Shown one piece after another: positions 43,756-64,000 of a stretch of 64,000 nt of DNA (its first letter is position 1; every line of letters begins with the position of its first letter). A program made the translations under genes and the position numbers. A model generated the notes under the pieces. It searched no databases and was not told the origin of the DNA. It saw only the letters and a program-made list of their open reading frames with translations. Source of the DNA: a virus (Duplodnaviria > Caudoviricetes); IMG/VR virus record IMGVR_UViG_3300028735_000004, positions 96,001 to 160,000 of that record; one strand, given 5' to 3'.

Positions 43756-44619
43756 TTATATATTAGACATTACTAATTTTGCCTTATTATATCCCAAATC
43801 TATCATATCTCTTATTTTAACTGGATCAAAATCTAAAGAATTAGAAATAAGATTAGTATCTGGTCTAATTATGTTATATGTAATTACTTTTTTATCAGTT
43901 AATCCAGCTGCGGCTAATTTATTATACATTATTAACTTTTCTAAATCATTAGAAAGTATTTTATCAGTTGAAACATCAAAAGATCGGTGTAAAATATTAA
44001 AAACATTTGTCATCTCTATAACAGAATGATTTCTTTCTTCCGGAGAAGTAAAAAGTATATCTATATGAGTTGCACCATTTTCTATAGCGGTAGCAATTGG
44101 AGATAATGTTTTGCTACCACCGTCTGACCACCAAGACCCATCAAAATATATGGGTGATAACATTCCTGGAAATGAGGCGGATGCTATGACTGCATCAACA
44201 AAATTAGATGATGTTTGATCGAACACCATATATTTGCCAGAATTTAAATTAACCGTGCCGACACAAATTTTTTTACCACTTTGTTGAATTTTACCTAAAT
44301 CTAAATTTGATTTTAATAATTGATGTAATGGAGTGCTATCATACACAGAAGGTTTCCATAAAGCGGCCAACATTCCAAAATATTTCCAATTTTTATAAAT
44401 CTTTTTTGTATCTAATCTCAACCACCATTTTTCAAGAGTATCAGATGCTTCCTGTTCAAATCCTTGTTTAAACATTCCTAAAAAAGCAGCATTAATGGCG
44501 CCTACCGAAACTCCACAAATACAATCATAATGTATCTGTAAATCATAAAGAAGATGCTTTAAATTTCCAACACTAAAAGCTCCTCTTGATCCGCCTGCTG
44601 ATAATACTAATGCTCTCAT
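43756..44619 (-). CDS. Patatin-like phospholipase/acyl hydrolase
   Basis: SAGGSRG oxyanion loop, GVSVG nucleophile elbow, SDGG catalytic Asp. Confidence 0.92.
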   Translation of the reverse strand: MRALVLSAGGSRGAFSVGNLKHLLYDLQIHYDCICGVSVGAINAAFLGMFKQGFEQEASDTLEKWWLRLDTKKIYKNWKYFGMLAALWKPSVYDSTPLHQLLKSNLDLGKIQQSGKKICVGTVNLNSGKYMVFDQTSSNFVDAVIASASFPGMLSPIYFDGSWWSDGGSKTLSPIATAIENGATHIDILFTSPEERNHSVIEMTNVFNILHRSFDVSTDKILSNDLEKLIMYNKLAAAGLTDKKVITYNIIRPDTNLISNSLDFDPVKIRDMIDLGYNKAKLVMSNI

Positions 44620-44620
44620 T

Positions 44621-45475
44621 TTATTCTTTTAGTCTTTGCTCTATTTCATGTATAATAAACATAACATCATTTGTTAAATCTAATCCTATACGATAATCTT
44701 CTTTTCCATCTATTGCATCAAGGAAAACTTTAATAACATTAAATAATGGAGTTTGCTCATATTTATCTATAACGGGTAATCCATTAAATAATAATTTATT
44801 TTCAGATAAATCATCATAAATAAATGTATCTTTATGAGAAGATACAATAAATTTTCTCATTTTAGTAGGAAATCCATTTCCAAATCCAAGATCTGCTTTA
44901 AGCTCTCCTTTAATATTATCTTTTTCAATATTAAAAAATAAAGAAACATTGAAATTTTCAGCAATTTCTTCATTTAAACTTACTTGTTGTTTTTGAGCAG
45001 TGAACTTCTGTGGTCTACCTCTCATTATATCTAATGTCAAAGCAATATCGTGTGGACCATAATCGTATAATGAAGAGTAATTTCTTATAGGACCATTATT
45101 ATATCCGCAAGAATATAATGCTGTTATTGCGTTGTGATCGCAATTATTTTTTATAAACTGATAATAATCTGAAAATAAATGTATATGATTTACAATTATT
45201 GGTGATTTATATTTATTTAATAACTCTATATCTTCATAATTTAAAGATATAGGTTTTTCAATAATTACTGGTATATTTTTCTCTAAAGCCTCTATTGCAA
45301 TTTCAATATGACTTTCTGGAGGAGTGGAAATTATTATACCATCACATTTTTTATTAATTAAATCTTTCCAATCTTCTTTGCCAGCAACTAATAATTTACA
45401 ATTTTCAAAATTAGCAATTGTATTTATATAATTCCTTCCCCATTTGCCAGCACCGATTAATCCTAAAGTCTTCAT
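44621..45475 (-). CDS. Gfo/Idh/MocA-family oxidoreductase (probable NDP-sugar ketoreductase)
   Basis: GLIGAGKWG Rossmann motif; STPPESH; IIEKP; DYGPHDI. Confidence 0.88.
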   Translation of the reverse strand: MKTLGLIGAGKWGRNYINTIANFENCKLLVAGKEDWKDLINKKCDGIIISTPPESHIEIAIEALEKNIPVIIEKPISLNYEDIELLNKYKSPIIVNHIHLFSDYYQFIKNNCDHNAITALYSCGYNNGPIRNYSSLYDYGPHDIALTLDIMRGRPQKFTAQKQQVSLNEEIAENFNVSLFFNIEKDNIKGELKADLGFGNGFPTKMRKFIVSSHKDTFIYDDLSENKLLFNGLPVIDKYEQTPLFNVIKVFLDAIDGKEDYRIGLDLTNDVMFIIHEIEQRLKE

Positions 45476-46428
45476 TTTACATTATAAAACCAAGAATTAT
45501 TTTGATACCAATTAACACATTCTTTTAATCCTTTATCAAAACTAAATGTGGGTTGCCAACCTAATGATTTTATTTTTAAACAATCAACGGAATATCTAAA
45601 ATCATGTCCTGGCCTGTCTTTTACAAAAGATACTAAATCTTTTTTTACTTCAAGTATTTTAGAAATTTTCTCTACGATTTCCAAATTTGTAAATTCTATA
45701 CCTGAGCCTATATTATATACTTCATTTACATTACCTTTTTCCACTACTTTCATAATAGCAGAACAATGATCTTCAACATAAATCCATTCTCTTATTTGAG
45801 TTCCATTTCCGTGAATTGGAATTTTTTGATCATTTAATATACAAGTAATTACTTTAGGTATTAAATTTCTTGGAGGCTGACGCGGACCAAAGTTATTGCA
45901 GCATCTGGTAATGTTATATTTAAGCCCGTGAGTTTGGCTTGCAGCATGTACAATTAATTCACCGGCTGCTTTTGAAGCACTATACGGATTTCTTGGTTTA
46001 ACTACGGCTTCTTCAGTCCAAGATTTATCACCTAAACCAAGCTGACCATATACTTCATCAGTTGAAACATAAACGAATTTTTCTACTCCATATTTTACAG
46101 CCATATCGACCATAACTTGAGTTCCAACAACATTTGAATGTATAAATGGGCCCGCACTTCTAATACTATCATCTACGAAACTTTCTGCAGCTCCGTGAAT
46201 AATAATATCCGGACGTTCAACAGCGAAAACATTTTCCATAAATTGTTCATCAGCAATATCGCCCATATAAAAACTATGATCTTGATTTTCTTTTATATTA
46301 TAACGATTATATGAAGCAAGAACCTTATCAACACTAACAAATCTATAATTTAATTTTTCGCGCATCACTTTACGCATAAAATTTGAAAAAATAAAACCGG
46401 CAGAACCTGTTATCAATATTGTCTTCAT
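45472..46428 (-). CDS. rfbB: dTDP-glucose 4,6-dehydratase
   Basis: TGSAGFIFS, HGAAESFVD, STDEVYG, YSASK, NNFGPRQ, DRPGHDFRY. Confidence 0.92.
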   Translation of the reverse strand: MKTILITGSAGFIFSNFMRKVMREKLNYRFVSVDKVLASYNRYNIKENQDHSFYMGDIADEQFMENVFAVERPDIIIHGAAESFVDDSIRSAGPFIHSNVVGTQVMVDMAVKYGVEKFVYVSTDEVYGQLGLGDKSWTEEAVVKPRNPYSASKAAGELIVHAASQTHGLKYNITRCCNNFGPRQPPRNLIPKVITCILNDQKIPIHGNGTQIREWIYVEDHCSAIMKVVEKGNVNEVYNIGSGIEFTNLEIVEKISKILEVKKDLVSFVKDRPGHDFRYSVDCLKIKSLGWQPTFSFDKGLKECVNWYQNNSWFYNVK

Positions 46429-46844
46429 ACTTCCTCTAATTTTAGAATTTTTTTAATTAAATCATCAGCCTTACCTTCTAAAACTGCAGATTTATCAAAA
46501 TGATAATTTGCTCCCTGAATCATCATATTAACATTATTTTGCTCTACATCTGAAAATGTAATAATCGGAATTTTTCTATTATTGGCCTGAATCCACATAA
46601 TTAAATCAGAACCATTACCTTCTGGCATATCGTGATCTAAAATAATTAGATCAATTTTACAATATGTAATAAGTGCAGATGCGGCAAGTGCGCCTGGAAC
46701 AACACTAAATTGAACTATTCCTTGGGGCTCAAATACTTGTAAAAAATGATTTAAAATACCTGATTGATTAGTTAAATCATCTTCACATATTAAAATATGT
46801 TTTTGTGGATATTTTAATCTATTAACATGTCTAAATTGAAACAT
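46425..46844 (-). CDS. Stand-alone response regulator receiver domain
   Basis: ILICEDD, DLIILDHDMPEGNG, ITFS, FDK: all key receiver residues present; no output domain. Confidence 0.85.
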   Translation of the reverse strand: MFQFRHVNRLKYPQKHILICEDDLTNQSGILNHFLQVFEPQGIVQFSVVPGALAASALITYCKIDLIILDHDMPEGNGSDLIMWIQANNRKIPIITFSDVEQNNVNMMIQGANYHFDKSAVLEGKADDLIKKILKLEEV

Positions 46845-48064
46845 TATATTTCCTTATATTCTGGAAGCGGAATAATCCAAGTGCCTTTAAAATTAGAATT
46901 ATTTTTAATAATTGAGTCAGAAAAATTCCAAGCTCCAATAAAAATATAATCTACCGGATCTGTATTTATTTTATCTGGAGAAAATATTTGAATATGTTTT
47001 CCTGGCGAATATACATTTTGTTTATCATTAGATTGTTTTAATAATGCATCTTCAATTCCATATTTAATAATATTTTCATCTATATTAAATGTATAAGCAA
47101 GAGTTGTAAATTTTGCAGGTAATCCGTAAATCGCAATTGATTTTCCGGAATTATATATTTGCTGTAATCTACTGGAAATTTTATCTCTTAAGAAGAGAAC
47201 ATTATCACAAAATTGATCTATTTTGGTATTTATATTTTTTTCTAAATTTAAAATATCATATACTGACTGCTTAATTTCCCTTGTTCCAGCTTTACACATA
47301 TATGCCCTAAAGGAACCGCCGTGATTTGGTAATCTTTCTACATCAAAAATATCTAATTTAAATTTCTTAAAATATTTAACCAAAGGATCTATATGAAAAT
47401 GATGCATATGTTCGTGATACACCAAATCCAACAATCCTTTATCTAAAATATCTAATAGATAAGAATTTTCAATTATAAATACTCCATCATCAGATAATAA
47501 TTCTAAAACTCCTTCAACAATAGTATCTAAATCCTCATTATGTGCAAAGCAATTATTACAAGTTATGACTTTAGCTTTTCCATAATTATCAGATATATTT
47601 TTGGCTAAATCTTTATTAAAGAATTCTGGTATAGTAAATACGCCATCATCATTTGCTTGTTTAGCAATATTTTGTGCCGGATCTACCCCTATAACCTTAA
47701 TATTTTGATTTAAAAAGTTCTTAAGAAAACATCCATCGTTTGAAGCAATATCGCAAATAATATCTTTAGATGTTAAATTAAATTCATTTATTATTAAATC
47801 TGCATATGTTTTAAAATGTTCTACATTAACTTTGCTTGTGCTACTTACATAAAAGTAATTTCTATATAATCTTTCTTTACTTACTATACAATCTAATTGT
47901 ATATGATTACAAGATTGACATTGCATTAAATTTAATGGAAATAAATCTTGCTTATCTTTATTATAAATAAATTCATTGGCAAGTGGAGAATTAGCTAAAT
48001 GTAAAATTTCTTTTATACTTCCACCGCATAATAAACATTTATTTATAATTTTATAATCAGTCAT
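46844..48064 (-). CDS. NDP-hexose C-methyltransferase (TcaB9/TylC3/NovU-type)
   Basis: N-terminal CLLCG...CQSC Zn site; DIASNDG SAM motif; YHEH; C-terminal IAIYGLPAK...AWNF. Confidence 0.88.
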   Translation of the reverse strand: MTDYKIINKCLLCGGSIKEILHLANSPLANEFIYNKDKQDLFPLNLMQCQSCNHIQLDCIVSKERLYRNYFYVSSTSKVNVEHFKTYADLIINEFNLTSKDIICDIASNDGCFLKNFLNQNIKVIGVDPAQNIAKQANDDGVFTIPEFFNKDLAKNISDNYGKAKVITCNNCFAHNEDLDTIVEGVLELLSDDGVFIIENSYLLDILDKGLLDLVYHEHMHHFHIDPLVKYFKKFKLDIFDVERLPNHGGSFRAYMCKAGTREIKQSVYDILNLEKNINTKIDQFCDNVLFLRDKISSRLQQIYNSGKSIAIYGLPAKFTTLAYTFNIDENIIKYGIEDALLKQSNDKQNVYSPGKHIQIFSPDKINTDPVDYIFIGAWNFSDSIIKNNSNFKGTWIIPLPEYKEI

Positions 48065-48483
48065 TAAAAATTTACTCTCACTACTGAATTCTCATAATTT
48101 TCGTGATTTTTTTCAATTCCATTAATAGTAATAAATGTAGTATCTTCTAAAAATTCTAATTTATGAACAACATCTGGTTTAGAAAACACCATTTGTCCAG
48201 CAGTAAAAATTTTAGGCTCCTTAACATCTTTACCATCTAAACTTCTTTCATAATATTTTAAAGAGCCAGAAACAATATAACAAGCGTGCCAATCTTGTTT
48301 ATGATAATGATTTGCTCTAACGGATCCGGCTTTACTTGTAATTAAAGTAATACTACCAGATGGTCCGAGCCATAAATTTTGTATTGTTCCACGATCATCA
48401 ATAAAAGGTTTATCTAACGGAACTTCAACATTTTCTGGATATTCTGCATTATTAACTAACTCTACATATTTTTTATTATCCAT
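48064..48483 (-). CDS. Cupin, NDP-sugar epimerase/isomerase-like
   Basis: FIDDRG...GSVRANHYHK...PDVVHK (RmlC/FdtA/WxcM-type). Confidence 0.8.
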   Translation of the reverse strand: MDNKKYVELVNNAEYPENVEVPLDKPFIDDRGTIQNLWLGPSGSITLITSKAGSVRANHYHKQDWHACYIVSGSLKYYERSLDGKDVKEPKIFTAGQMVFSKPDVVHKLEFLEDTTFITINGIEKNHENYENSVVRVNF

Positions 48484-49657
48484 TTTTCTTACCTTTATAT
48501 TCTATAATTTTTTGCTCTAATTTAGAAACTGATTTTTCCCAGCTGTGCTCCAACGCAAATTTTCTACAACGATCTATAACATCATCTGCATATGCTTTAT
48601 CTGTTAGAGATTTTATTATTGAATTAGTATATTCTGGTAAATGGTCTTTGATTGGAGATGGGATTACAATACATCCGGAATCCTTATATATACTTCCTAA
48701 ACAATCTTTATCTGTAATTACTGGAACTGTATAACTTGCATGTGCTTCAAGAGTTGATACGGAAAAACCTTCAGAAAATGATACTGTATCACAAGTATAA
48801 CCAAATACACTGGCTTGACTAAATTCCTCGTTTATTTGTTGCCTACTAACAGAGCCTATATGTTCTACTCCAAAATCTTTTAATTTTTCTATTGCATTCT
48901 TAATATATCTTACTCTTTGACCCATTTCAACTATATGAAAATGATTATTTTTATCGTGAGGTTCGATATTAGGAATTGCTCCATAATTAAAATGATAAAA
49001 AATCTTTAAGGAAGCATAAGGAACTTCTTTTCTAATTTTTGGCCATTGAGATAATAACCAATGCAACCCACGATCTGCACTTGAGCACCAAATAACTCTT
49101 CCCGGAACTCTACGATCTTCATATACCTCTGGAGAGCATCCTAATGGCACCATATCCCATTTATCTGGTCTAATTGACCTTGCTTTTAAAATCTCCATAT
49201 GTTGATGACAAACACCTAAATATAAATCAACAAAGTCATCATAGTTAGGTCCGCAATAACTAAAGTCATTTAACATCTGCCAAACAATTCGTAATGGTTT
49301 GGTAGTAGAGTTAGATAAAAAACTAAAAACCTCCGGTTCATTTAATGAAATAACACAATCAAATGTATCATCGACAACATTTACAAGTTCATCAAAATTA
49401 TATAATTTTGCCCCGGCCCACATTTCCGGCTTATTATGAGGTTGAGCGTGAACCGTAAATAAATGAACTTCGTGTTGTTTTTTTGCAAATTCTTCTGCCA
49501 TTTTAACAAGACACAATTCAGTTCCAGTTAATCCTCTTGAACTAACCAAAATATTACTGTACCAAAAATCTAATGGACGAGAACCGATACTATATGGACC
49601 TAAAACAAGCGCTATTTTCATCAAATACCCTTTGGTGTAATATATAACATCGTGCAA
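48476..49657 (-). CDS. GT-B glycosyltransferase (GT4-like)
   Basis: GLTGTE; WCSSADRGL; EGFSVSTLEA acceptor-side motif. Confidence 0.85.
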   Translation of the reverse strand: MHDVIYYTKGYLMKIALVLGPYSIGSRPLDFWYSNILVSSRGLTGTELCLVKMAEEFAKKQHEVHLFTVHAQPHNKPEMWAGAKLYNFDELVNVVDDTFDCVISLNEPEVFSFLSNSTTKPLRIVWQMLNDFSYCGPNYDDFVDLYLGVCHQHMEILKARSIRPDKWDMVPLGCSPEVYEDRRVPGRVIWCSSADRGLHWLLSQWPKIRKEVPYASLKIFYHFNYGAIPNIEPHDKNNHFHIVEMGQRVRYIKNAIEKLKDFGVEHIGSVSRQQINEEFSQASVFGYTCDTVSFSEGFSVSTLEAHASYTVPVITDKDCLGSIYKDSGCIVIPSPIKDHLPEYTNSIIKSLTDKAYADDVIDRCRKFALEHSWEKSVSKLEQKIIEYKGKKNG

Positions 49658-50030
49658 GGATGTCTTTCTATTTCTTCAAAATTACAATCAAAAGATGATG
49701 TAATTAATTGTTTTACTCTATTAGAAATTTGAGGATCTAAAAAGTTATGACATTCTATAATCATATTTGTTTTAAATTTACTAATAGATTTTAATCCGCC
49801 TATAATTGCTTTTTCTTCCGCGCCTTCAACATCGATTTTAATCCAATTAATTTTATTAATTTTATATGTATCAACAACATTATCTAATGTTATCATATCA
49901 TATACTTTAGTTATTGTTTGAGAAGGCCAATGTGGAGCATAACTACTCTATAAAAAGAATATTCTGGATGAGTAGTACCTTTGATTACTTTAAATTCTTT
50001 ATTTTTAAAAGTTTGATTTTTAATTTGCAT
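49621..50030 (-). pseudogene. FkbM-family methyltransferase with internal deletion
   Basis: ATG at 50030 gives MQIKNQTFKNKEFKVIKGTTHPEYSFY, then a frame change to SSYAPHW...ITLD...IKIDVEGAE...IIECH; the SAM-binding motif I is absent. Confidence 0.75.
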
Positions 50031-51140
50031 TTAACACCAACCGTTTCCGTTTAAAATTTCAATATATTTATTTACATAAGATTTTGCCATCATTAATTTA
50101 TCAAATCTAATAACAGATTGATTTCTGCATTTTACCAAATCTATATAGTTAATTTTAGACAAAGCCTCTGAAAAATGTTTAATATTATTTTCACAAACAT
50201 ATCCGGTAATACCTTTATCAATTACTTCCGGCACCGATCCATAATTAGTGCCAATTACCGGAGTGCCGCAAGCCATCGCTTCAACTTGAGATAATCCAAA
50301 TGGTTCGTGAAATTGAACACTATATATAAGAGCCTTTGCTTTTCTATATAGATTTCTTTTAGCAATATGATGTTCAGGATCTTTTGGAAGCCACTCAAAA
50401 TGTATATTTGGTATATTTTTAGCATTATAAATCGCTTGTATAGCGCAATTTTTTTGATATTCAAATATTTCATCTTCCGGTCTGGTTCCCGCTATAACGA
50501 AATCATAATTTGGATTTGTTTTAGCCAAGTTAATCGCAAAATAATATCCTTTTGCTTCGTGCCATCGATTCATCCAAAGAAAAAAATTACTTTTTTCATA
50601 TGTTGGAGAATAATAATTAGTATCTATACCACCATAAACAACTTTTGCTTCTTTAACCTTATGCCCATTTGGTCCAGCTAAATCTGGAGTTGGAGTATTT
50701 TCATAATCAGTAGCTCCTCTTAAAACTCTATCTCTATGAGCATTTGACCAAACAATTAAATTATGGGGGCCGTAGTCATGCTTCCAACATCCACCCATTA
50801 AAGTAGAAATAACACTTGTTTTACCTAATTGAAATAAGTGTTCTGCAACCACTTTACATGTACTAAAATCGTGTATAATATCTAAATTTAATAAAATATT
50901 TTTATATTTATTTAAACAATCTAAAGCACAATCTACTGATGTTGGAGATGATTTTCCATATGTTGCCATAGTTGGATGTAAAATAGTTTTTTCAGGAGGA
51001 ACTGTTCCATCTGGAGCGAATAAATGAATTTCATGTCCTAAATCAATTAAAGATGATATTAAATCTAATATTACAACATCACCAGTATGTGTATGGTATG
51101 GTATTGGAAATGACAATGTTGAAACAATTCCTATTCTCAC
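50031..51140 (-). CDS. GT4 glycosyltransferase
   Basis: EPFGLSQVEAMACGTPVIGTNYGSVPEVI. Confidence 0.92.
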   Translation of the reverse strand: MRIGIVSTLSFPIPYHTHTGDVVILDLISSLIDLGHEIHLFAPDGTVPPEKTILHPTMATYGKSSPTSVDCALDCLNKYKNILLNLDIIHDFSTCKVVAEHLFQLGKTSVISTLMGGCWKHDYGPHNLIVWSNAHRDRVLRGATDYENTPTPDLAGPNGHKVKEAKVVYGGIDTNYYSPTYEKSNFFLWMNRWHEAKGYYFAINLAKTNPNYDFVIAGTRPEDEIFEYQKNCAIQAIYNAKNIPNIHFEWLPKDPEHHIAKRNLYRKAKALIYSVQFHEPFGLSQVEAMACGTPVIGTNYGSVPEVIDKGITGYVCENNIKHFSEALSKINYIDLVKCRNQSVIRFDKLMMAKSYVNKYIEILNGNGWC

Positions 51141-51865
51141 TTCACTGCCTCAACTATAAAACTATGTGATAAACCAGTATCAACTGCCTCTTCAGCTAAA
51201 ATTGGATTTACACTTTTATGGGGCTCATAATAAAAATAAACATCTTTAAAACCAGAGTTTAATAAACAATTTCTTATAGAAAATTTATTAAATATAAACA
51301 TATGACCTTCATAATTATTAAATGTGCAATTAGGTCCAGATGCACCAAACATTAGAAAACATAATTTTGAACCAGGATCTGCTAATTTATAAAATTCGGG
51401 TTGTTCAGGAGCAAATTTATCCATATCATTATTAAAATAAGCATTTAATAATAAATCTAAATCTGGAGTAGTAATTCTAATAACTCCACCTGGTTTTAAA
51501 ACTCTAAAGCATTCATTTAATACTTTAGGAACTTGATAAATTATATTTAAATGTTCTATAATTTGACCAAGATAAATAATATCTACGCTATTGTCTTGAT
51601 GTTGAGGTAATCCAGACATTATATCGTGCTTAATTATATTAGCGGAACCTCCATTAATAAAATAATTAACAACATTTCTTTGTTCCTTTGTCATATTATT
51701 AAATACATTTATATAATAAGGATTTGGCGGGTTAGATGTTAATCCTTCAACAACCAATTTAATATAGTAAAAATATTCATTTTGCTCATCGTGATCGTAA
51801 TTAGTCCATCCAGGATATGGGAAAATATTAGGACCGCACCCTATATTTAATTTAACTAAACTCAT
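51137..51865 (-). CDS. Class I SAM-dependent methyltransferase (probable sugar O-methyltransferase)
   Basis: LNIGCG, IIEHL, RVLKPGGVIRITTPD. Confidence 0.85.
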   Translation of the reverse strand: MSLVKLNIGCGPNIFPYPGWTNYDHDEQNEYFYYIKLVVEGLTSNPPNPYYINVFNNMTKEQRNVVNYFINGGSANIIKHDIMSGLPQHQDNSVDIIYLGQIIEHLNIIYQVPKVLNECFRVLKPGGVIRITTPDLDLLLNAYFNNDMDKFAPEQPEFYKLADPGSKLCFLMFGASGPNCTFNNYEGHMFIFNKFSIRNCLLNSGFKDVYFYYEPHKSVNPILAEEAVDTGLSHSFIVEAVK

Positions 51866-52788
51866 ATTTGACTCTTATAATAATTAATAACTTCTTTAAT
51901 TGATTTTGATTTTAAATTATCTAAATTAGCATACAATTGATCTACCCAAATATAAAACTCATCAGCATTTCTATCTAATTTTGCTTTATTACAAATATTG
52001 CAGCACGGAACTATATTTTCAATACTATGAGTACCATCATTATTTAATCTATCGAGCCCATTGTATTTATATGTATATAGATTATTATTTAATCTATTTT
52101 TATAATAATTAATTGCCGTATTAGACTTTTCTTCACCACAATAAAAACACTTTAATTGACTAATTTTTAGAAAATTATTAAAACTTATATCTTTATATAA
52201 CCTCTGCCAGACTCCTTTAGCGGCAGATAATTGATATTTATTAAAAACAATATCAGATTTATTTTCTATATTTTTAGAATTATTATTAAATTTAACTTTA
52301 TAAATCCAATTTATAAAGTCTTCATAAGATTTATTTAATTTTGCAGAATTACAATAACGACAACACGGAATTATATTATCTATAGTATGTCCTAAGTTAT
52401 TATTGACTCTATCTAAACCATTATAAATAAATTCTCCATTTATTTTTGCATCAGTGCTATTGTTATTAGCATAATATATGTGGCAATTCAATTTATTTAA
52501 TGGTTTAGATTTACAGTAATGACAATCCATTTGAGAATATTTTATAAAAACATTAAAATCACAATCCTTATATGTAGACCTCCAAGCTGCTTTTGCAGAA
52601 GTTTCCTTTGGATTATATTTTTGTTTTAAGCATCCACAAGATTTAATTTTATTAGCAATTAAATGATCGTATCTTATTGATTTTAATTTTCCGCATATGC
52701 ATTGACACAAATAATATTTTTTATAATTAGATATTTTATCTAATTTTAATATAGTTAAATTACCTATACTTTTATTAATCAAACTCAT
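51862..52788 (-). CDS. HNH homing endonuclease with duplicated HNH domain
   Basis: Two copies of CxYC...NGLDR.NN..GH..(D/E)NI.PCC..CN.AK; N-terminal LCQCICG. Confidence 0.85.
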   Translation of the reverse strand: MSLINKSIGNLTILKLDKISNYKKYYLCQCICGKLKSIRYDHLIANKIKSCGCLKQKYNPKETSAKAAWRSTYKDCDFNVFIKYSQMDCHYCKSKPLNKLNCHIYYANNNSTDAKINGEFIYNGLDRVNNNLGHTIDNIIPCCRYCNSAKLNKSYEDFINWIYKVKFNNNSKNIENKSDIVFNKYQLSAAKGVWQRLYKDISFNNFLKISQLKCFYCGEEKSNTAINYYKNRLNNNLYTYKYNGLDRLNNDGTHSIENIVPCCNICNKAKLDRNADEFYIWVDQLYANLDNLKSKSIKEVINYYKSQI

Positions 52789-55700
52789 CGATAACTTTCT
52801 GTAGGGTAATATGGGTTAAGTGGATTAATTTTTTTAATTTCTAACAATTGACGAAACATTTGAGACCATTCATTAGCTAAATCATCTAAACCAAAATGAG
52901 ATATTGCATATTGTTGTGATCTTATTCTATCACTATCATCATCATCAGTTAATGCTTTAACTGCTGCTTCAATAAAGGCATTTTTATAACTTTCACTTGT
53001 CCAATCTCCAGGTATCAAAACACCTCTATCACCAACTGTCTCATTAATTGCAGCAATTGAACTTCCAACAAATCGCAAACCTGCTGCTTGAGCTTCCATA
53101 CCACCTATATAACTCGTTTCTGAAAACCAAGTTGGATATAATATAACTCCAGATGATAAAAATTCATCTGCAAGTTGTTTTTGATTTACACGATCGTGAT
53201 AAACAACTCCTTGATTTTGTAATTCAAATATTTTATTTTTTAAATATTGAATTAAATTTTTATGCTCTGGATTAAATTGTGCCGAATATTCCCAATTTTT
53301 AAATCCATAAAACAAATGTAATTCTGCTTCTGGAACGCGCTCTTTTATTTTCGGCCAAATATCTAATAATACCGGCCAAGAACGATCTGGACTGCTGGAG
53401 TTAATTGCTTTAAATTTATTTCTTGGAAGTTTCTTATTAAATCTATTTAAATCAATACCATTTCTTGATACAATAATATGATCTGGATGAACATTATGAA
53501 CATTAATTAGATTTTGTTTATGCCAGTGAGATAGTGCTATAATACGATCTGCTTTTAACAATAATTCATTATTTGCATTTAAAGCAAATACATCGTGAAC
53601 CCAAAGTAATTTTAATTTAGCAGAAATATTATATCGATCTTCAAGCATATTAGCTTGTCTTGAAATAATTAATACATCGCATTCTAAATCTTGAAATTTA
53701 TTAGACTGATAATATTCAACTCCATCATAAATTCCTTCGCCGTGTTCTCCGCAGCTATTATAAAGTCTAACTCTGTGGCCACTTAATGCCAATCTTTTAG
53801 CCATTTCAAGAGCCATTAATTCACTACCACCAATACCAGTATTTCTAACAGTTAATGGGCTCCAAGTTTCCACGCCGTCTCCGCAATAAATAATAATATC
53901 TAATTTATTATTATTTGATGGTGATTGTAAATATCCTTCGGCCAAAATATTACCTTGATTTTCTACATCTTTGGCACCACTTGCTAAAGAAACAAAACTA
54001 TCTTTAACCCAGAATCCGGCTTTTCGCAAATTATCAGCTACCGTCCAAACAGTTGGCGCAACAATACGACTCTTTAAATGAGGAGTTAACCAATTTTTAC
54101 CTTCTTTTTCTAAATTCCAAGGATCGGCGAATTCAACATATTGACCTCGCATCCAAGCCCCATAAGGAGTGCATAATAAAATTTTACCATTAGATTTTAG
54201 CATTTTAGCAGCCGGAACTAACATATCATTAACCGGATCTATTAAATGCTCATATGTATCAGAACTTAAAACATAATCAAATTTATCTTGTATTTTTTGT
54301 TCCATATCTTTAAATAAAGAACATACATAAGTTGCATTTGTATTAAATTCTTCGGCTTTTCTTTTAGCAAGATCAATAGATGTTTGTATTGCATCGACAC
54401 CGACTACTTTATGTCCTAATAAACCGTATCTATTAGTGAAACTACCGTCCATACATCCAAGATCTAATATAAAACTATTTGGCTCTAATCTTGACGCCAT
54501 TATATGAAATCTTTGTCCTTCTTGAGTATCTAAACTTAAAGGAAATGGTAATAAAATTCCAGATTCTACATTTGGATTAATAGGTGTGTTTAAGGAGATA
54601 AATTTATCTTTATCATTATTCCAATCAAGATATTTTTTTGTCATTGATAATGCTTTTATTGTTTCAGCAGTATGTCTAACATAATATGGAGCATTTTCTA
54701 AAAACGAAATAGCAGATAATACCTCATCATTAACTATATATTGCTTCCAAATCATAAGTACAACGGCCTGCAATTGCTCTTTACTTAATTTTAATGGATA
54801 ACTTGAAAAATCATAAACATTAGGTATTTTCCAATCAAATTCAGATTTTCCAACTTTAGCAACTGGAAATTTATTTTCAAAAACAACACCTTCTTCTGGT
54901 AAAGGTTGATTATTAATAGCGGCTAAAATAACATTAATATTTTCTTTATTAATGGTATTATTGCTAACTAATGTATTTAGATTTTTAACAATTTCTTGAC
55001 GAGCCAAAAAATCTTCATAGATTTTTTTATTAGTTAAAAAATAAGGATCTTCTGGTTGAGCCTTCATACCAGTTAAAACACTTTCTAATGCGCCTTTAAC
55101 ATCACCTATTTTATTTAAAGCTAAATTTAAATATTTATGAATTTCGGCATCACGCTCAATTGGATTAATAAATAATAATGTTTTAGTTGGTGGTAATTTT
55201 AATCCAGTTTGAGCAAAATAAGCGCATCGTTCCCAGTTTCTTTGCTCATCATTACCGCCATTTAATGCAAGAAAATAAAAAGCTTTAGCAAGAGCAAAAT
55301 ATCCCTCTGCCCAATTTTCTTTAATTTCAATTGCTTTAAATCCCCATTTAATACATTCGTTATATTTTTTTAAATCAAAATAAATATCAACAAGTTTCAG
55401 ACAAGCCATAACGCGCTCATCTTCCCATCCAGAAACTTCTATATATTTTGTTAAATGTTCGATAGATTCATCAATCATTCCAACATTAGCATATTCTAAA
55501 CCCAAATAATATCTTTGTCTTGCATCAGTATCACCAATTTTTTCAAAATAGGCTTTTAAAATTCGTAAGTTTCTTCCAGATTCAAATGTTTTAGTGCTGT
55601 ATTGACGCTGATGTTTAAATACTAATTCTTCTCGTGGCACTAATGAAATTCTTTTATTATTGTCAGGAACTGCTACTTCGTGAACTGGATTGGTCCATTT

Positions 55701-56156
55701 AAATAAATTTTTATCTGAAAATAATCTTTCTCTGTAATGTTTGCAGGTGCATTGTCCTGCCGCATTATATGAATACTCATACGGAAATAAAAATGCAATT
55801 CCATCTAATTGAAAAACATCTTTATTTTTTTCATATTCTTCAACTATATTTTTTAATTTATCCATACCGTCAATAATATCATCACCATCTAACCACATTA
55901 CCCAAGATTTAGTGGCTAAATCAAATGATCTTTGACGAGCTTGAGAAAAATTTTCAATTAATCCTGTTTCTGGATTATTACAATCAGTATATACTTCAAA
56001 AATATCTGCATATTTTTTAGCTACTTCTTGCGTTCCATCCGTAGACCCGGTATCAACAATAACGATCTCTTCAACATAATCTCTAATTGATTTTAGACAT
56101 TTTTCTAAAAGTGGTTCATTTTTAACAATAATACAAGCTGATACTGGTGCTTTCAT
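52785..56156 (-). CDS. Multidomain GT2 - TPR - SAM methyltransferase - GT4 fusion
   Basis: 1123 aa. IVIVDTGSTDGT/WLDGDD (GT2); YYLGLEY and EGYFALAKAF (TPR); ILDLGCMDG (MTase); GIGGSE...SSPDRS...ETSYIGGMEAQA (GT-B). Confidence 0.9.
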   Translation of the reverse strand: MKAPVSACIIVKNEPLLEKCLKSIRDYVEEIVIVDTGSTDGTQEVAKKYADIFEVYTDCNNPETGLIENFSQARQRSFDLATKSWVMWLDGDDIIDGMDKLKNIVEEYEKNKDVFQLDGIAFLFPYEYSYNAAGQCTCKHYRERLFSDKNLFKWTNPVHEVAVPDNNKRISLVPREELVFKHQRQYSTKTFESGRNLRILKAYFEKIGDTDARQRYYLGLEYANVGMIDESIEHLTKYIEVSGWEDERVMACLKLVDIYFDLKKYNECIKWGFKAIEIKENWAEGYFALAKAFYFLALNGGNDEQRNWERCAYFAQTGLKLPPTKTLLFINPIERDAEIHKYLNLALNKIGDVKGALESVLTGMKAQPEDPYFLTNKKIYEDFLARQEIVKNLNTLVSNNTINKENINVILAAINNQPLPEEGVVFENKFPVAKVGKSEFDWKIPNVYDFSSYPLKLSKEQLQAVVLMIWKQYIVNDEVLSAISFLENAPYYVRHTAETIKALSMTKKYLDWNNDKDKFISLNTPINPNVESGILLPFPLSLDTQEGQRFHIMASRLEPNSFILDLGCMDGSFTNRYGLLGHKVVGVDAIQTSIDLAKRKAEEFNTNATYVCSLFKDMEQKIQDKFDYVLSSDTYEHLIDPVNDMLVPAAKMLKSNGKILLCTPYGAWMRGQYVEFADPWNLEKEGKNWLTPHLKSRIVAPTVWTVADNLRKAGFWVKDSFVSLASGAKDVENQGNILAEGYLQSPSNNNKLDIIIYCGDGVETWSPLTVRNTGIGGSELMALEMAKRLALSGHRVRLYNSCGEHGEGIYDGVEYYQSNKFQDLECDVLIISRQANMLEDRYNISAKLKLLWVHDVFALNANNELLLKADRIIALSHWHKQNLINVHNVHPDHIIVSRNGIDLNRFNKKLPRNKFKAINSSSPDRSWPVLLDIWPKIKERVPEAELHLFYGFKNWEYSAQFNPEHKNLIQYLKNKIFELQNQGVVYHDRVNQKQLADEFLSSGVILYPTWFSETSYIGGMEAQAAGLRFVGSSIAAINETVGDRGVLIPGDWTSESYKNAFIEAAVKALTDDDDSDRIRSQQYAISHFGLDDLANEWSQMFRQLLEIKKINPLNPYYPTESYR

Positions 56157-56225
56157 TCTTTAATTCCAATATGTTAAAATCTAACTTGTATATAACAAAA
56201 ACAATTTAGGTAAATTATTTTAATT

Positions 56226-58445
56226 TTAACCAATTAATTTCATATAGAAATAAGTGCCAGTTGGAGAGTAAGCAATGCCAGAACCGCCGCCGCCTTTAAT
56301 TTGTCCAGTAATACCAGGAATATCCAAGAAACGAGTGTAAGTTTCGATGCTGGTACCAGATGGAATATAAACAAGATAGTTTTGTGAAGCGCTTACATTT
56401 CTGGCACCAGTTGCAGCTGATAAATTAACATAAGTTACTGACTGATCAATAGGTGTTCCGCTACCATAACCACGCCTATCGTTTCCTCCAGTTGCACCAA
56501 GGAATTGTTGAATTTCAATGTTTACACCAGATGGTAATCCAGTGAAATTAATTTTTGTGCTAACTTCATAATAACCAGATTTATTAACTTGAATCCAGCC
56601 AGCAGCAGTTCCAACGCTTGTGGCAGATAAAGCGCCTGAACTATAAATTATTCCGTTATTCCATTTTATCATACCGCCAGAAGCACCGCCGGAAATAATG
56701 TTGGCACCAGTGATACCTACTTTAATAAAATGATTAAAATTATTAATGTTAACTGAATTTCCAGGACCAGTTGTGCCTTCTAACGCTCCATTTAAATTAA
56801 TAGTATTAAATGGTCCGAGTGTAAGTCCGTTATTTTGAATCCAAATAGTGCTGGCTCCGTTAACTCCAGCAGGCCCGATACTTCCGGTTGGTCCTACGGT
56901 TCCAGTTGGTCCGGCAGGTCCAGTTGGTCCGGCAGGTCCGGTTGGTCCGGCAGGTCCGGTTGGTCCAGGAGCACCGTTTGGAGCTTCATTCCAATATAAA
57001 TTACCGCTTCCATCAGTTAATAATACTGATCCAGATGCGCCGATATTTCCTGGTAAGCGTAAAGTAAATGATGCGACAGATGATCCTACTTGTAGATACA
57101 TCATACCGCTACCACGCACGGATCTTAATGCTACATATGGTCCGGCATCAACTGGATCTCTTCCGATTTCTGAAATAAATGTTGCAACGCCAGATGCGCT
57201 ATTAAAGAACTGTACTGATCCATAAAGATTTGCCGTTCCTGCTGGAGCTGGAATAGATAAAATAATATCTCCAGGTTGTCTATTATTACCAGTAGCACTT
57301 GCATTTGGTTCTTGGCTTTTAATTTCAATATTCCAGGTTTGAGCGTTTGATTGTACTGCTGATTTTGTAATTAAGAAGTGATTAGATGATACTATACCAT
57401 CGCCCTCACCTAATAATAAAGTATTATTTCCTGGATTTAATTTAATGCTTGCACCGTTATCAATACTTAATACTGTTGAATTAACGTCTTGTACAGCGAA
57501 GTGCCCTCCGAACTCTACCCAGGTTCCAGAAGTATTCGTATTTCCAAGTTTAATAACATCTATTGTAGATTGACGGCCATAACTTAACATTGGCCAAGGA
57601 TTTCCGCTATTATTCAAATAAGTAATAAATGGATATAAAACTTCCTGTTCAGGTCTTGGTAGTCTAATAAATCCAGATGGGGCGGCAGATGCTACGGTAT
57701 TATAGAATACAAGTCCTGCTGAAGGAACTGTAATAGCTCCACTTAATCCACCAAGATTGCTTATTCTTGGAGTCGTAGCGGTTGAGTTTGATCCTTGAAA
57801 ATCTCCATTTAATGCAATTAAGCCTGGAGTTGCGGAAGATGCGAAAGTTGCACCGCCGCCGACGACGCCGGGGCCGGGTGGACCTTGTGGTCCTGTAGCT
57901 CCTTGTGGTCCTGTGGCTCCTGTAACTCCTGGAGATCCCTGGGCTCCTTGAGGACCAGTAACTCCTTGTGGACCTTGAGGACCTGTAGCTCCTGTAACTC
58001 CTGGAGATCCCTGGGCTCCTTGAGGACCTGTAGCTCCTTGTGGACCCTGAGGACCAGTAGCTCCTGTAACTCCCGGAGATCCTTGAACTCCTTGAGGACC
58101 TTGTGGTCCTGTAGCTCCTGTAACTCCTGGGCTACCTTGAATTCCCTGTGGACCCTGAGGGCCAGTAGCTCCTGGAGATCCTTGAGGACCCACACTACCA
58201 GTTGGTCCCGGTGGTCCTCCAGCGGGTCCGGTTGGTCCCATAGGACCAGTTGGACCTACTCCACCAATAATATAAATATCAGCAATTGGACCTGTAGCAG
58301 ATCCGGTAACTCCAGGACCGTGAAAATTTAATCCTGTAAAATATCCTAAATCATAACCATCATTAGAAACAGAAATACCAGATCCTATCACACTACCGGA
58401 ACCTGTCATTACCCCTTTTATTTGTGATGGATTTATTTTACTCAT
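56226..58445 (-). CDS. Collagen-like virion fibre with C1q/BclA-like C-terminal domain
   Basis: 739 aa with two Gly-X-Y blocks rich in GxT; C-terminal [17 protein letters not shown] jelly-roll pattern. Confidence 0.88.
56905..56966. repeat. 18-bp tandem repeat encoding (GPAGPT)n
   Basis: Three copies of gttggtccggcaggtccr plus a partial copy. Confidence 0.85.
57880..58260. repeat. Collagen-coding imperfect tandem repeats ([16 protein letters not shown]..)
   Basis: Recurrent ctcctgtaactcctggagatcc / ccttgaggacc units. Confidence 0.85.
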
Positions 58446-59044: not shown

Positions 59045-59815
59045 TTAGTACCCCTTTTTAAATCTTTTATTTTTTTTATTTTTTTTCTTTTTATATGGAT
59101 ATGCTGCTTGAACCATTGGCATCATCATTGGCATAGGCATTGGCATCATCATTGGATACCCGTAAGGATGAGAGATATATTCATCTTCGTCATCATCTTC
59201 ATCGTCATCATCTTCAATAATTTTAGAATTAGATTGAAGTTGGATATTTTGATTATCGCTATGCTTGCTTAAATCTTGTTTATTATCGTATTTGCTATAT
59301 ATAGTTAATAACGATAATTTTTCGTCTTTGGATAATATTAAATCTCTAATTTATTTTTCGCTCATTTTTTGAATATCAGATGCAGTTAATCTATATCTTA
59401 AATATAACATTTCTTGCAAATAATTCATCTGTGGTTTAAAATAATCAAAATCTTTTTGATCTATTCTTAAAGTTCTATCCACTGCTGCGCTTAAAGTTCT
59501 ACAATAACTGTCAAGCCATTCTGGAGTACCTAAAAATTGTTCTTTAATATCATCAACAGCGGTTTTAACTTTAAAAAAAGTTTTTATTTGTTCAGATGTA
59601 TCCGTATCAATAAAAGGCTCGGACCTATGATAAAATTGTAAATTTCTTCTCGGATTAAACTCATTTTCTTGATTAATTCTACGAGTATCAAAAGCAACTT
59701 TTATCATTTTATTATTTAAAACAGATGCTCGTAATTCAAATATTTTTTTACGATTATCTATTTTATTTGATAATGAAGAAAGCGTATTATAAATATCTAT
59801 ATAATCAAATATCAT
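59045..59815 (-). pseudogene. Hypothetical protein interrupted by one in-frame TAA, with low-complexity C-tail
   Basis: After TAA 59351-59353 the frame continues 101 codons (IRDLILSKDEK...DDDDEDDDEDE...PMMMPMPMPMMMPM...KKKKNKKNKRFKKGY) to a TAA abutting the next ATG. Confidence 0.7.
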
Positions 59816-59872: not shown

Positions 59873-60391
59873 TTAAATATCTAATTTCCAGTCCCAAATG
59901 CTAATTTTTTTAGTTCCAATATTATTTTGATTATAAATCGCCAATATACAGTCTTTTGGATATGGGGTAGTGCAGCCCTCAAAAGTTAATCTGCCTTTTA
60001 AAATTAAAGTATGTGAGAATGGATACACATAATCAATAAACCAATTAGATCCTACTGAAGCTGGAACTAAAAATGCTAAATAACGATCTGGATTTTTAAC
60101 AGCCCACATCGCACATTTATCCGACCAAGCAGATATATTTCCAAATGGAGGGTTTAACCATAAATTGCCGTCCAAATTATTCCAATCATATTCTAAAGAA
60201 TTTACATATAAAGCATTAGGATTGTTGCCAGGTTTAAAAGATAAATATTTATCTGTTTTAGCATTACCATCTTCTGCAGCTAAATCCCAAGATAATTTTC
60301 CAAATTTATTTTCTACGGCTTTAATTAAATCTTTTGGAGTTCCATAATTTTGTTTTGATTGACCTGGTTTTTGAATTGGCATTATTTTCAT
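59873..60391 (-). CDS. Phage-type DNA N6-adenine methyltransferase
   Basis: YGTPKDL, WDLAA, LWLNPPF, FLVPA, GRLTF. Confidence 0.85.
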   Translation of the reverse strand: MKIMPIQKPGQSKQNYGTPKDLIKAVENKFGKLSWDLAAEDGNAKTDKYLSFKPGNNPNALYVNSLEYDWNNLDGNLWLNPPFGNISAWSDKCAMWAVKNPDRYLAFLVPASVGSNWFIDYVYPFSHTLILKGRLTFEGCTTPYPKDCILAIYNQNNIGTKKISIWDWKLDI

Positions 60392-60414
60392 ATAAACTTT
60401 TATATCAATAAAGT

Positions 60415-63198: not shown

Positions 63199-64000
63199 TC
63201 AGGCGCCGATAACTACTGATTTATTACCCTTTGCAACTCCGCGTGGATTTACGATGCCAATGCCGATGATTTCATTGACTACCCATCCTAATTTTAATTG
63301 TTTTGGTTCGTCAGCTGGTAATACTTCGATGTCTTGACGAATTGGCATTACGCCTACGAAATCTGGATCTGCAGCGGCATATACTGTTCCTGGTGGAACG
63401 ATTTTGCTTACAAGGATATCTGCGCCCCAGATACGAGCATAAAGACCTGTTTGGAGGATTTCGCGTTGTGTGACTGGATCTACATCGCCGCCACCTACGC
63501 CTTGACCACCACCAGAACCCCATTGGAGAATATCGTTGAATTCATTGATATTCATAAAGAATTTGCTGGTTACTAAGTCCCAACGATCTACTTGGCGTTT
63601 GAGAGCCGCTAAATCGCGTTTTAATAGACCTGAATCAGCAATATCTTGTGCTGTATTTTCGATACCAGCAGCTGCATCAACGGCCGCGAAGACGTTAGCA
63701 TCTTCTTGAGCCATAATTTCTTGACGAGCTTTTTGAACTGCACGGTCGATTACATTGAATCTGCGACGTTTTACTTCTGCTAAACGAACTGTTGGATTTG
63801 AGTAAAGTTCGAATTCTGGAACTGTTACGCGATCACCAAAAACGCGGCTTTCTGGGCCTGAACCGTTTGAGGAAATAACGACGGCAGTTACATCAATATC
63901 GCGATCGTAAACTGGAAGCGCGCCTTGCGCTAATGGATCAACCGTTAACATTTTACGAGCAATTCCATGATAATCTAAGTTTCTACGAATTGGATTTGCC
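63199..64000 (-). CDS. Major capsid protein (HK97-type), 5' end outside the window
   Basis: Frame open to 64000 (ANPIRRNLDYHGIARKMLTVDP...); RAVQKARQEIMAQEDANVF, GLYARIWGADILVSKIVP, LGWVVNEIIGIGIVNP. Confidence 0.88.
   Translation of the reverse strand, partial: ANPIRRNLDYHGIARKMLTVDPLAQGALPVYDRDIDVTAVVISSNGSGPESRVFGDRVTVPEFELYSNPTVRLAEVKRRRFNVIDRAVQKARQEIMAQEDANVFAAVDAAAGIENTAQDIADSGLLKRDLAALKRQVDRWDLVTSKFFMNINEFNDILQWGSGGGQGVGGGDVDPVTQREILQTGLYARIWGADILVSKIVPPGTVYAAADPDFVGVMPIRQDIEVLPADEPKQLKLGWVVNEIIGIGIVNPRGVAKGNKSVVIGA

Follow-up and report, generated by a model that had tools for sequence, protein, structure and literature searches.

Why should a tailed phage keep genes for sugar synthesis and sugar transfer among the genes that build its own particle? 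The question is raised by a stretch of 64,000 nucleotides (nt) of viral DNA, positions 96,001 to 160,000 of the IMG/VR record IMGVR_UViG_3300028735_000004, which was analysed at its full length and is called the window here. In it, the gene for a collagen-like protein is followed by a cassette of glycosyltransferases, methyltransferases and sugar-nucleotide enzymes (Table 1). The window has a G+C content of about 30% and is coded almost entirely on the minus strand. It is part of a contig of 243,941 bp that matches a metagenome run from a microbial mat. Its major head protein has gp27 of Bacillus phage G as its closest cultured relative (52% identity), and a tail sheath gene lies at 12188-14986, with the cassette between the sheath and head genes. 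In this context the cassette is seen to lie among structural genes, and the phage to be an uncultured jumbo phage of the phage-G-like kind. Related capsid genes occur at a minimum of 340 loci in IMG/VR, the best 80 being 81-88% identical and several lying on contigs of 400-480 kb.

A preliminary description of this DNA had proposed that a branched, methylated deoxysugar is synthesised by the phage itself and decorates its fibres or capsid. Every computational test that we made is consistent with such a sugar on a virion fibre. The description's further suggestion of a host source of deoxythymidine diphosphate (dTDP)-glucose is probably wrong for the phage as a whole, and within the window the cassette is not strictly autonomous. 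We consider it fairly probable, from evidence made up entirely of sequence, structure prediction and comparative genomics, that the module combines a late-expressed collagen-like virion fibre with cytoplasmic machinery for its O-glycosylation, the glycan containing a C-methyl 6-deoxyhexose. The eight enzyme types named in that description were all recovered by profile matches where it had placed them (43756-58445, minus strand), and their identities held in profile comparisons and structure predictions. The packing is as tight and as mostly stop/start-coupled as described: from o199 to the patatin gene, junctions are overlaps of -1, -4 or -8 nt, except for +69 after the collagen gene, +134 and -37 on the two sides of an FkbM remnant, and a 1-nt gap between the Gfo/Idh/MocA and patatin genes.

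The fibre, its predicted adaptor and the transferases

The proposed substrate is the collagen-like protein of 739 amino acids (aa). It has a short N-terminal peptide (residues 1-11), two G-X-Y blocks (61-193 and 491-532), a spacer domain and a C-terminal head (540-739), and threonine occupies the Y position in 20 of its 58 triplets. The C-terminal 200 residues recur in 48 representative homologs, nearly always at the C-terminus and in proteins of many lengths. An AlphaFold2 (AF2) model of residues 540-739, built with 26 homologs in the alignment, has a predicted local distance difference test score (pLDDT) of 74.5 and matches the TNF-family ligands RANKL, LIGHT and TNF with template modelling scores (TM-scores, by target) of 0.65-0.75; BclA is absent from the best 50 structure matches listed. 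As modelled, the head is a TNF/C1q-like fold, which is the fold class of the BclA and F-BclA heads (PMC12357932). The fibre thus joins Thr-rich triplets to a predicted TNF/C1q-like C-terminal head, the combination that marks a BclA-like protein.

The gene directly before the collagen gene, in every related locus examined, encodes a protein of 199 aa (o199) that is predicted to be a trimeric adaptor for the fibre, on head or tail. In a complex prediction with three copies of each protein, fibre residues 1-11 lie in a groove of o199 residues 149-190, with a score of 0.77 against 0.00 for the best control; the mark used for such scores, which 51 of 78 solved complexes and 2 of 108 mismatched pairs attain, holds only roughly for a job of three plus three chains. 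Three runs share at least 95% of the contacts, and partner pLDDT is at least 67. The docking peptide follows the pattern M-S-K-I/V-N-x-x-Q-I-K-G, which is kept at the start of most relatives' collagen genes. Neither o199 nor o154, the product of the gene before it, matched a family in PHROGs, Pfam (for DUF4183 on o199, at E<=0.05) or NCBIfam. Atlas gave only sub-threshold leads for o199, to DUF4183 (0.80) and to T7 tail-fibre N-terminal clusters, and we therefore do not place it in DUF4183.

The gene after the fibre, 69 nt away in the window and also behind collagen genes in ten related loci, encodes a four-module fusion. Its GT2 domain (PF00535, 63.8 bits) carries D90-G-D92, a DXD motif as expected of an SgtA-type enzyme; the S-adenosylmethionine (SAM)-dependent methyltransferase module has its motif I at residue 565, and the GT4 module has E1013-x7-E1021. 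Among solved structures, the GT2 domain has its best matches in GmaR (1.5e-18), the Listeria flagellin O-linked N-acetylglucosamine (O-GlcNAc) transferase, in SunS (5.5e-08) and in 7msk (1.9e-04). All three act on proteins or peptides, SunS and 7msk as peptide S-glycosyltransferases. Searched alone, residues 1-400 matched clostridial proteins of about 356 aa (28-33% identity, E of about 1e-30 to 1e-34), which are homologous over their full length, are annotated as TPR-containing GT2 enzymes and come from Peptostreptococcaceae, Romboutsia and other Clostridia. Immediately before the gene for one of these proteins, P0238, is a collagen-like gene of 272 aa with GPT/GAT repeats. Homologs of the fusion number 721 at E<=1e-10, many of them on contigs of 240-480 kb. 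As a separate observation, some (P0095, P0101, P0104 and P0121) are 1450-1530 aa long, contain PF14528, PF13403 and PF14890, and appear to host inteins.

Three further transferases follow. A free SAM-dependent methyltransferase, probably acting on sugar oxygens, has orthologs at the same position in the related loci L096 and L114 (46-51% identity). Of the two free GT4 enzymes, GT4a is 48-49% identical to its orthologs in L114 and L113. GT4b, a core member of the cassette, is 48-60% identical to orthologs in the relatives G001, G002, G003 and G005, and its position is held by a gene of 372-381 aa in L108, L109, L110, L113 and L114 and by a 605-aa GT4-methyltransferase gene in L115.

A predicted route to a C-methyl-branched deoxysugar

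The sugar itself would begin with a dehydratase of the dTDP-glucose type (RmlB). Other models score 146 bits (GalE), 97.7 bits (cytidine diphosphate (CDP)-glucose dehydratase) and 37.1 bits (guanosine diphosphate (GDP)-mannose dehydratase) on the same protein. A CDP- or GDP-sugar pathway was considered and ruled out, because those dehydratase models score far under the dTDP-glucose type. GxxGxxG (GSAGFIFS), TDE (STDEVYG) and YxxxK (YSASK) are all present; we take these to be the motifs of extended short-chain dehydrogenases/reductases (SDRs), the last two presumably catalytic. The established product of this family is dTDP-4-keto-6-deoxyglucose.

The enzyme for the branch, a predicted nucleoside diphosphate (NDP)-hexose 3-C-methyltransferase, matches MtmC (4rv9, 1.9e-66), TcaB9 (3ndi, 3.4e-54) and a sugar 3-C-methyltransferase (5t64, 4.5e-51) over its full length and has the CxxC...CxxC and YHEH motifs. 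Since domain scans found neither a 2,3-dehydratase nor an aminotransferase in the cassette, the C-methyltransferase would use a 2-hydroxy 4-keto-6-deoxyhexose. In the cereose and virenose routes the C-methyltransferase likewise acts on a 2-hydroxy ketosugar.

The AF2 model of the cupin has a pLDDT of 94.7, and H59, H61, H66 and H107 are invariant. Its first 33 Foldseek matches are all CapF, 3,4-ketoisomerases (FdtA, QdtA, FdtD and WlaR, with TM-scores of 0.6-0.7) or the epimerase StrM; RmlC and ChmJ follow among the best 50 matches listed, and the Pfam FdtA and RmlC models gave no match. The model suggests a sugar-nucleotide cupin that is either a 3-epimerase or a 3,4-ketoisomerase. The remaining enzyme, a Gfo/Idh/MocA oxidoreductase with invariant GxG and EKP motifs, is encoded in every cassette examined and is a probable ketosugar reductase. 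On these assignments, the pathway would yield a dTDP-activated C-methyl-branched 6-deoxyhexose, its configuration left unspecified.

The gene content of the window bears out the earlier remark that it has no RmlA, from which use of host dTDP-glucose had been deduced. For the phage as a whole that deduction is probably wrong, because relatives encode RmlA elsewhere. A gene of about 250 aa with an NTP_transferase domain lies at a distance from the cassette in G001, G002 and G003 and also occurs in G009; the G002 copy, the one checked, is an RmlA (glucose-1-phosphate thymidylyltransferase 3hl3, 3.8e-54) and adjoins an RmlD-like reductase. Within the window, then, the cassette is not autonomous in the strict sense. 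Other sugar-related features lie outside the cassettes. In G002, an unassigned gene stands before RmlA, and about 100 nt upstream of that gene is an IS200-like Y1 transposase (PF01797, 3.3e-39; L102 257-655, G002:C1:2663-3061). A second RmlB is found in G001 (48% identity) and in G002 (53%; G002:C1:166370-167308), and a distant C-methyltransferase with 26-27% identity, accompanied by additional SDR genes, occurs in both G001 (C1:295967-300119) and G012 (C1:105049-109424). As several relatives have more sugar-nucleotide genes elsewhere, these phages possess more than one glycan cassette.

These predictions suggest the following course of events. RmlB would turn dTDP-glucose, supplied through an RmlA encoded elsewhere, as in relatives, or by the host, into dTDP-4-keto-6-deoxyglucose; the MtmC/TcaB9-type enzyme would place a C-methyl group on the ketosugar, the CapF/FdtA-like cupin would alter its configuration or keto position, and the Gfo/Idh/MocA enzyme would reduce the keto group to give a dTDP-C-methyl-6-deoxyhexose. 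The SgtA-like GT2-TPR module of the fusion would then initiate a glycan on Thr or Ser of G-X-T triplets, the fused GT4 and the free GT4s would extend it, and the fused and free SAM-dependent methyltransferases would O-methylate it. The trimeric, TNF/C1q-headed fibre would finally plug its N-terminal peptide into an o199 trimer on the virion, as in the complex model.

Linkage in related phages and the choice of target

Relatives were found through a capsid protein search of IMG/VR. The window's proteins were compared with IMG/VR loci, five contigs were then extended, and six fusion homologs at 45-63% identity (L108, L109, L110, L113, L114 and L115) were chosen and their neighbours read. In G001, G002, G003 and G004/G005 the shared order is capsid, o154, o199, collagen, fusion GT2-TPR(-methyltransferase)-GT4, GT4b, cupin, C-methyltransferase, RmlB, Gfo/Idh/MocA, patatin, o99 and o81, often with a small glycine-rich protein after the collagen gene and sometimes with a receiver-domain (REC) gene between C-methyltransferase and RmlB. 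The o154-to-o81 block of G001 is inverted relative to the capsid gene. The core of this order (o199, collagen, fusion, GT4, cupin, C-methyltransferase, dehydratase and Gfo/Idh/MocA) is found in those loci and in the six chosen by their fusion homologs. Conservation beside collagen genes in related jumbo phages, which the preliminary description had put forward as a check, is thus found in ten further loci. The collagen proteins of G001, G002, G003 and G004/G005 range in length from 1005 to 2572 aa and contain between 167 and 691 triplets; the giants before the cassette in the six other loci have 194-392 triplets, with Thr in 31-63% of Y positions where counted. Because cassette proteins of the window and its relatives are 30-75% identical, the linkage is a conserved one and does not reflect a single recent copy.

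One or two glycine-rich proteins, absent from the window, are encoded between the collagen gene and the fusion in relatives (L092 11853-12632; L110 9066-9836; L108 3033-5635). The one that was scanned, from G002, belongs to PF21722 (Gly_rich_2). Glycine is especially abundant in the copies of G002, L108 and L110, at 31-36% in the latter two.

Fibre and sugar genes also go missing together. L002, L005 and L028 have neither fibre nor sugar genes at this place, and the capsid region there runs straight on into patatin, o99 and o81. Among 16 large relatives screened, the fusion and an orthologous C-methyltransferase were confined to the five that carry a collagen gene behind o199; only the distant C-methyltransferase copy mentioned above is present in G012 and at a second site in G001. 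Five relatives are complete to at least 95%. In G001 and G004 the cassette adjoins large collagen genes, whereas none of the three that lack it has a large collagen gene, G006 and G008 having none at all and G009 a small one. On a tree of capsid proteins, the collagen/glycosyltransferase label must change at least four times across branches with good support, and fibre and kit stay linked throughout. By gene order and phylogeny, the fibre gene and the kit appear to be an accessory, replaceable module that moves together in a variable slot after the capsid genes.

Several searches returned nothing of use. The cluster gave no megablast match among 50,697 phage records, scanning IMG/VR for peptide patterns of the C-methyltransferase brought up no relative, and a one-pattern scan of genome contigs with the fusion alignment matched only an unrelated Shewanella methyltransferase. 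A scan for sigma-70 promoters and terminators did no better than on shuffled sequence. Synteny with phage G was ruled out, as none of the cassette genes is present after gp27 there.

Viral glycosyltransferases and sugar-nucleotide enzymes lie here among structural genes, the arrangement by which virus-encoded virion glycosylation is recognised. The sugar could nevertheless be meant for other virion proteins (capsid, decoration or tail), with the collagen gene a mere neighbour. The module lies within about 5-20 kb of the major head gene, on its downstream side, several glycosyltransferases could act on several substrates, and mycobacteriophage glycans are carried by capsid and tail-tube C-termini (Freeman et al. 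2023, cited in PMC12619734). However, the cassette follows the collagen genes and not the capsid gene, and the capsid seems to need no cassette because relatives with capsid proteins 81-88% identical do without one. The GT2-TPR module, moreover, resembles the collagen-directed SgtA in domain make-up and in the gene neighbourhood of one homolog. We consider this alternative unlikely.

We think it quite unlikely that the cassette instead alters a polymer on the surface of the host (a capsule, teichoic acid, an S-layer or a spore glycan) so as to block superinfection or change host behaviour. This is how sugar clusters of jumbo phages and pelagimyophages have been read in print (PMC7824862, PMC7029224); GT4 and GT2 families are frequent in envelope polysaccharide synthesis, and some TPR-GT2 homologs lie among Wzz/LytR/CpsB genes. 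Against it, domain scans found no flippase, polymerase or initiating lipid-carrier transferase among the cluster proteins, and none of these proteins has a hydrophobic stretch resembling a membrane span, so a cytoplasmic protein target fits better than envelope polysaccharide synthesis. The genes are also coupled to fibre genes within a structural run, and the linkage of cassette to collagen-like genes is strict in eleven loci. Transfer of the sugars to phage DNA, as an anti-restriction hypermodification, is very improbable: phage glycosyltransferases often act on DNA (10.1101/2023.12.21.572611), DNA modification is, beside host-surface change, the usual published interpretation of sugar clusters in large phages (PMC7824862, PMC7029224), and DNA methyltransferase genes lie nearby (59873-62529), but the cluster has no genes for hydroxymethyl-pyrimidine synthesis, the nearby methyltransferases are fused or coupled to homing endonucleases and missing in many relatives, and proteins and peptides are the substrates of the solved enzymes closest to the GT2 domain.

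Several findings also weigh against the reading that we prefer, a glycosylated collagen-like fibre. Host-surface modification is the default published reading of jumbo-phage sugar clusters (PMC7824862, PMC7029224). RmlB falls 1.1 bits under the curated equivalog cut-off, and the TPR matches of the fusion (TPR_11, TPR_1 and TPR_P4H at 213-385) are all under Pfam cut-offs. The cupin's reaction (3-epimerisation, 3,5-epimerisation or 3,4-ketoisomerisation) is not told apart, as sequence favours CapF and size and TM-scores favour the ketoisomerases; nor is reduction at C4 told apart from reduction at C3 for the probable Gfo/Idh/MocA reductase. The context of the TPR-GT2 family is suggestive without being uniform, since P0252 has no collagen neighbour and the contig of P0238 also bears capsule-type genes; other members of the family stand in cell-wall polysaccharide settings. 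L112 also carries Wzz/LytR genes, and L111 has no collagen gene nearby. G009, at least 95% complete, has one collagen-like open reading frame (ORF) of 246 aa and no cassette. Finally, the loci in which fibre and kit co-occur belong to kin phages with a short capsid tree and so are not independent samples.

The range 43756-58445 also holds genes that the preliminary description, right about the named enzymes, had overlooked. The HNH endonuclease is missing at the corresponding position in relatives. The FkbM-family gene is reduced to its C-terminal part, residues of about 28-104 being gone; we regard it as decayed because L114, with the same accessory order (methyltransferase, GT4a, FkbM, GT4b), keeps an intact gene of 225 aa. 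In L113 it is fused to a GT4. That the fragment is the N-terminus of GT4b, displaced by a frameshift, was ruled out: the alignment of GT4b with its ortholog in G002 already starts at residue 2, and the similarity of the fragment to intact FkbM genes is limited to their C-terminal part. The REC protein has the usual DD, D and K positions. Its orthologs in G002 and G005 are 303-305 aa long (L092 18862-19779; L095 7293-8204), the extra C-terminal part being a dual-specificity phosphatase domain (PF00782) in the G002 copy, the only one scanned; the window keeps REC alone, and the L113 and L115 cassettes have REC genes too. Patatin was rejected as a member of the cassette, since it directly follows the capsid region in L002, L005 and L028, which have no sugar genes there; it is a backbone gene flanking the cassette.

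Upstream, o154 has one in-frame TAA at 59351-59353 (GAA AAA TAA ATT), after which the frame stays open for 101 further codons to the o199 start. Its homologs are 236-286 aa long and the homology runs past the TAA; nonsense mutation, misassembly and readthrough are all conceivable. Between the capsid gene and o154 (59873-63110, minus strand) lie genes for an HNH endonuclease, a 704-aa LAGLIDADG-like and DNA methyltransferase protein, and a Dam-like methyltransferase; as the number and order of endonuclease genes vary in nearly every relative, this interval appears to be a hot spot for mobile elements. Farther along, a single plus-strand ORF of 452 aa (39208-40566) stands amid the minus-strand structural run and adjoins a minus-strand ORF of 604 aa, both without a family match.

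Table 1. Features of the window discussed in the text, in order of position.
Feature	Position	Strand	Basis or remark
Patatin-like phospholipase	43756..44619	-	PF01734, 1.8e-24; first gene of the range 43756-58445
Gfo/Idh/MocA oxidoreductase, probable NDP-ketosugar reductase	44621..45475	-	PF01408; profile vs PDB 3c1a, 2e-39
dTDP-glucose 4,6-dehydratase (RmlB)	45472..46428	-	TIGR01181, 364.0 bits (cut-off 365.1)
Stand-alone receiver (REC) domain protein	46425..46844	-	PF00072, 1e-11
NDP-hexose 3-C-methyltransferase	46844..48064	-	PF08421, 47.4 bits (cut-off 31.3); PF08484, 94.2 bits (cut-off 23.5)
Cupin, predicted to act on NDP-4-keto-6-deoxyhexose	48064..48483	-	CapF cupin domain, profile vs PDB, 1.5e-06
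GT4 glycosyltransferase b, core cassette member	48476..49657	-	PF13692/PF00534
FkbM-family methyltransferase remnant, C-terminal part only, 91 aa	49621..49896	-	PF05050, positions 100-171 of 173
GT4 glycosyltransferase a	50031..51140	-	PF00534, 1e-22
SAM-dependent methyltransferase, probable sugar O-methyltransferase	51137..51865	-	PF08241, 9.2e-09
HNH homing endonuclease	51862..52788	-	phrog_1035, 6.4e-23; inserted in cassette, no sugar gene
Four-module fusion, 1123 aa	52785..56156	-	Pfam: GT2 6-115, TPR 213-385 (weak), SAM-dependent methyltransferase 555-689, GT4 857-1066
Collagen-like fibre protein, 739 aa	56226..58445	-	PF01391, E 3.7e-21
o199, predicted trimeric adaptor, 199 aa	58445..59044	-	1-nt overlap with collagen start
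o154, conserved gene between capsid and fibre genes	59045..59815	-	no family assignment; no Atlas match
Major head protein	63199..63951	-	phrog_2522, 1.2e-63; opens late structural run

Comparison with known glycosylation systems

Virus-encoded glycosylation of virions is known for giant eukaryotic viruses (PMC9614988) and for some mycobacteriophages since 2023 (PMC12619734). No account of a tailed phage whose collagen fibre is coupled to a cassette of deoxysugar and glycosyltransferase genes turned up in our literature search. In the phages considered here, which are huge, environmental and widespread, the substrate, its anchoring partner, the initiator, the extension and methylation enzymes and the sugar pathway appear to be encoded as one unit. 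If this is confirmed, autonomous protein glycosylation would extend to tailed phages, and the module would be a tractable system in which to study how collagen is O-glycosylated in the BclA/SgtA manner, as well as a source of new enzymes for C-methyl sugars and for the glyco-engineering of collagen-like materials. It would also have a bearing on how phage particles adhere, persist and escape recognition in microbial mats.

Like the mycobacteriophages, the window has tailed-phage glycosyltransferases among structural genes, which there modify virion proteins. The mycobacteriophages use host nucleotide sugars on capsid and tail-tube C-termini (Freeman et al. 2023, cited in PMC12619734), whereas the window has a pathway dedicated to a branched sugar, an enzyme of several domains and a proposed target that is collagen-like. 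With Mimivirus and the chloroviruses it shares virus-encoded nucleotide-sugar synthesis and glycosyltransferases, which in those viruses serve capsid fibres, and collagen-like proteins are found there too (PMC9614988). Those are eukaryotic viruses, however, with other enzymes and sugars. Mimivirus collagen is modified via hydroxylysine and not by an SgtA-like Thr glycosyltransferase. The antibiotic deoxysugar pathways (MtmC, TcaB9 and 5t64) supply full-length homologs of the C-methyltransferase, with its zinc-binding and C-terminal domains, but the phage cassette lacks their 2,3-dehydratase, aminotransferase and aglycone pathway.

For initiation, the closest parallel that we draw is with SgtA of C. 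difficile, a 358-aa enzyme of GT-A fold with TPRs, encoded beside bclA3, which adds beta-O-GlcNAc to Thr of GPT repeats (PMC7157674). In both cases a soluble enzyme with a GT-A/GT2 domain is encoded beside a G-P-T or G-X-T collagen-like gene, and the TPRs of SgtA have a weakly matched counterpart in the phage fusion. The likeness runs through the 356-aa clostridial proteins, which have the same domain make-up and a near-equal length; they are set beside SgtA by its description and not by its sequence. The phage module differs in being fused to a methyltransferase and a GT4 (1123 aa), in being phage-encoded and in having its own deoxysugar pathway.

The collagen regions of BclA bear O-glycans containing anthrose or cereose (PMC12357932). 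The phage fibre resembles BclA of Bacillus cereus and B. anthracis in its collagen stalk with Thr-rich triplets and its predicted TNF/C1q-like trimeric head. In the cereose/cillose operon, a 4,6-dehydratase, a C-methyltransferase and a reductase reportedly make a 3-C-methyl-6-deoxyhexose on a collagen protein, as Li et al. are said to have described in 2017. The phage dehydratase, in contrast, scores as the dTDP-glucose type (364 bits, against 98 for the CDP-glucose type), its reductase belongs to Gfo/Idh/MocA and not to the SDRs, a cupin is added, and the fibre is predicted to dock on a phage protein and not on the exosporium. For the docking itself there is a parallel in the F-ENA endospore appendage, whose tip fibrillum, F-BclA, is collagen-like and TNF-headed and docks by a short N-terminal peptide on a small trimeric beta protein (PMC12357932), much as fibre residues 1-11 are predicted to dock on o199. 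The two differ in that the likeness of o199 to DUF4183 is only the Atlas lead at 0.80, Pfam giving no match at E<=0.05.

Tentatively, then, the mobile fibre-plus-kit of many environmental jumbo phages may build a hairy virion coat resembling that of BclA and the exosporium, in which TNF-headed collagen fibres would be hooked to an adaptor and would bear O-glycans, initiated by an SgtA-like enzyme, of a phage-made, O-methylated C-methyl 6-deoxyhexose akin to cereose. If so, this would be the first case of a tailed phage placing a rare sugar of its own synthesis on a virion protein, and its coat would be either convergent with the spore-surface biology of Firmicutes or captured from it.

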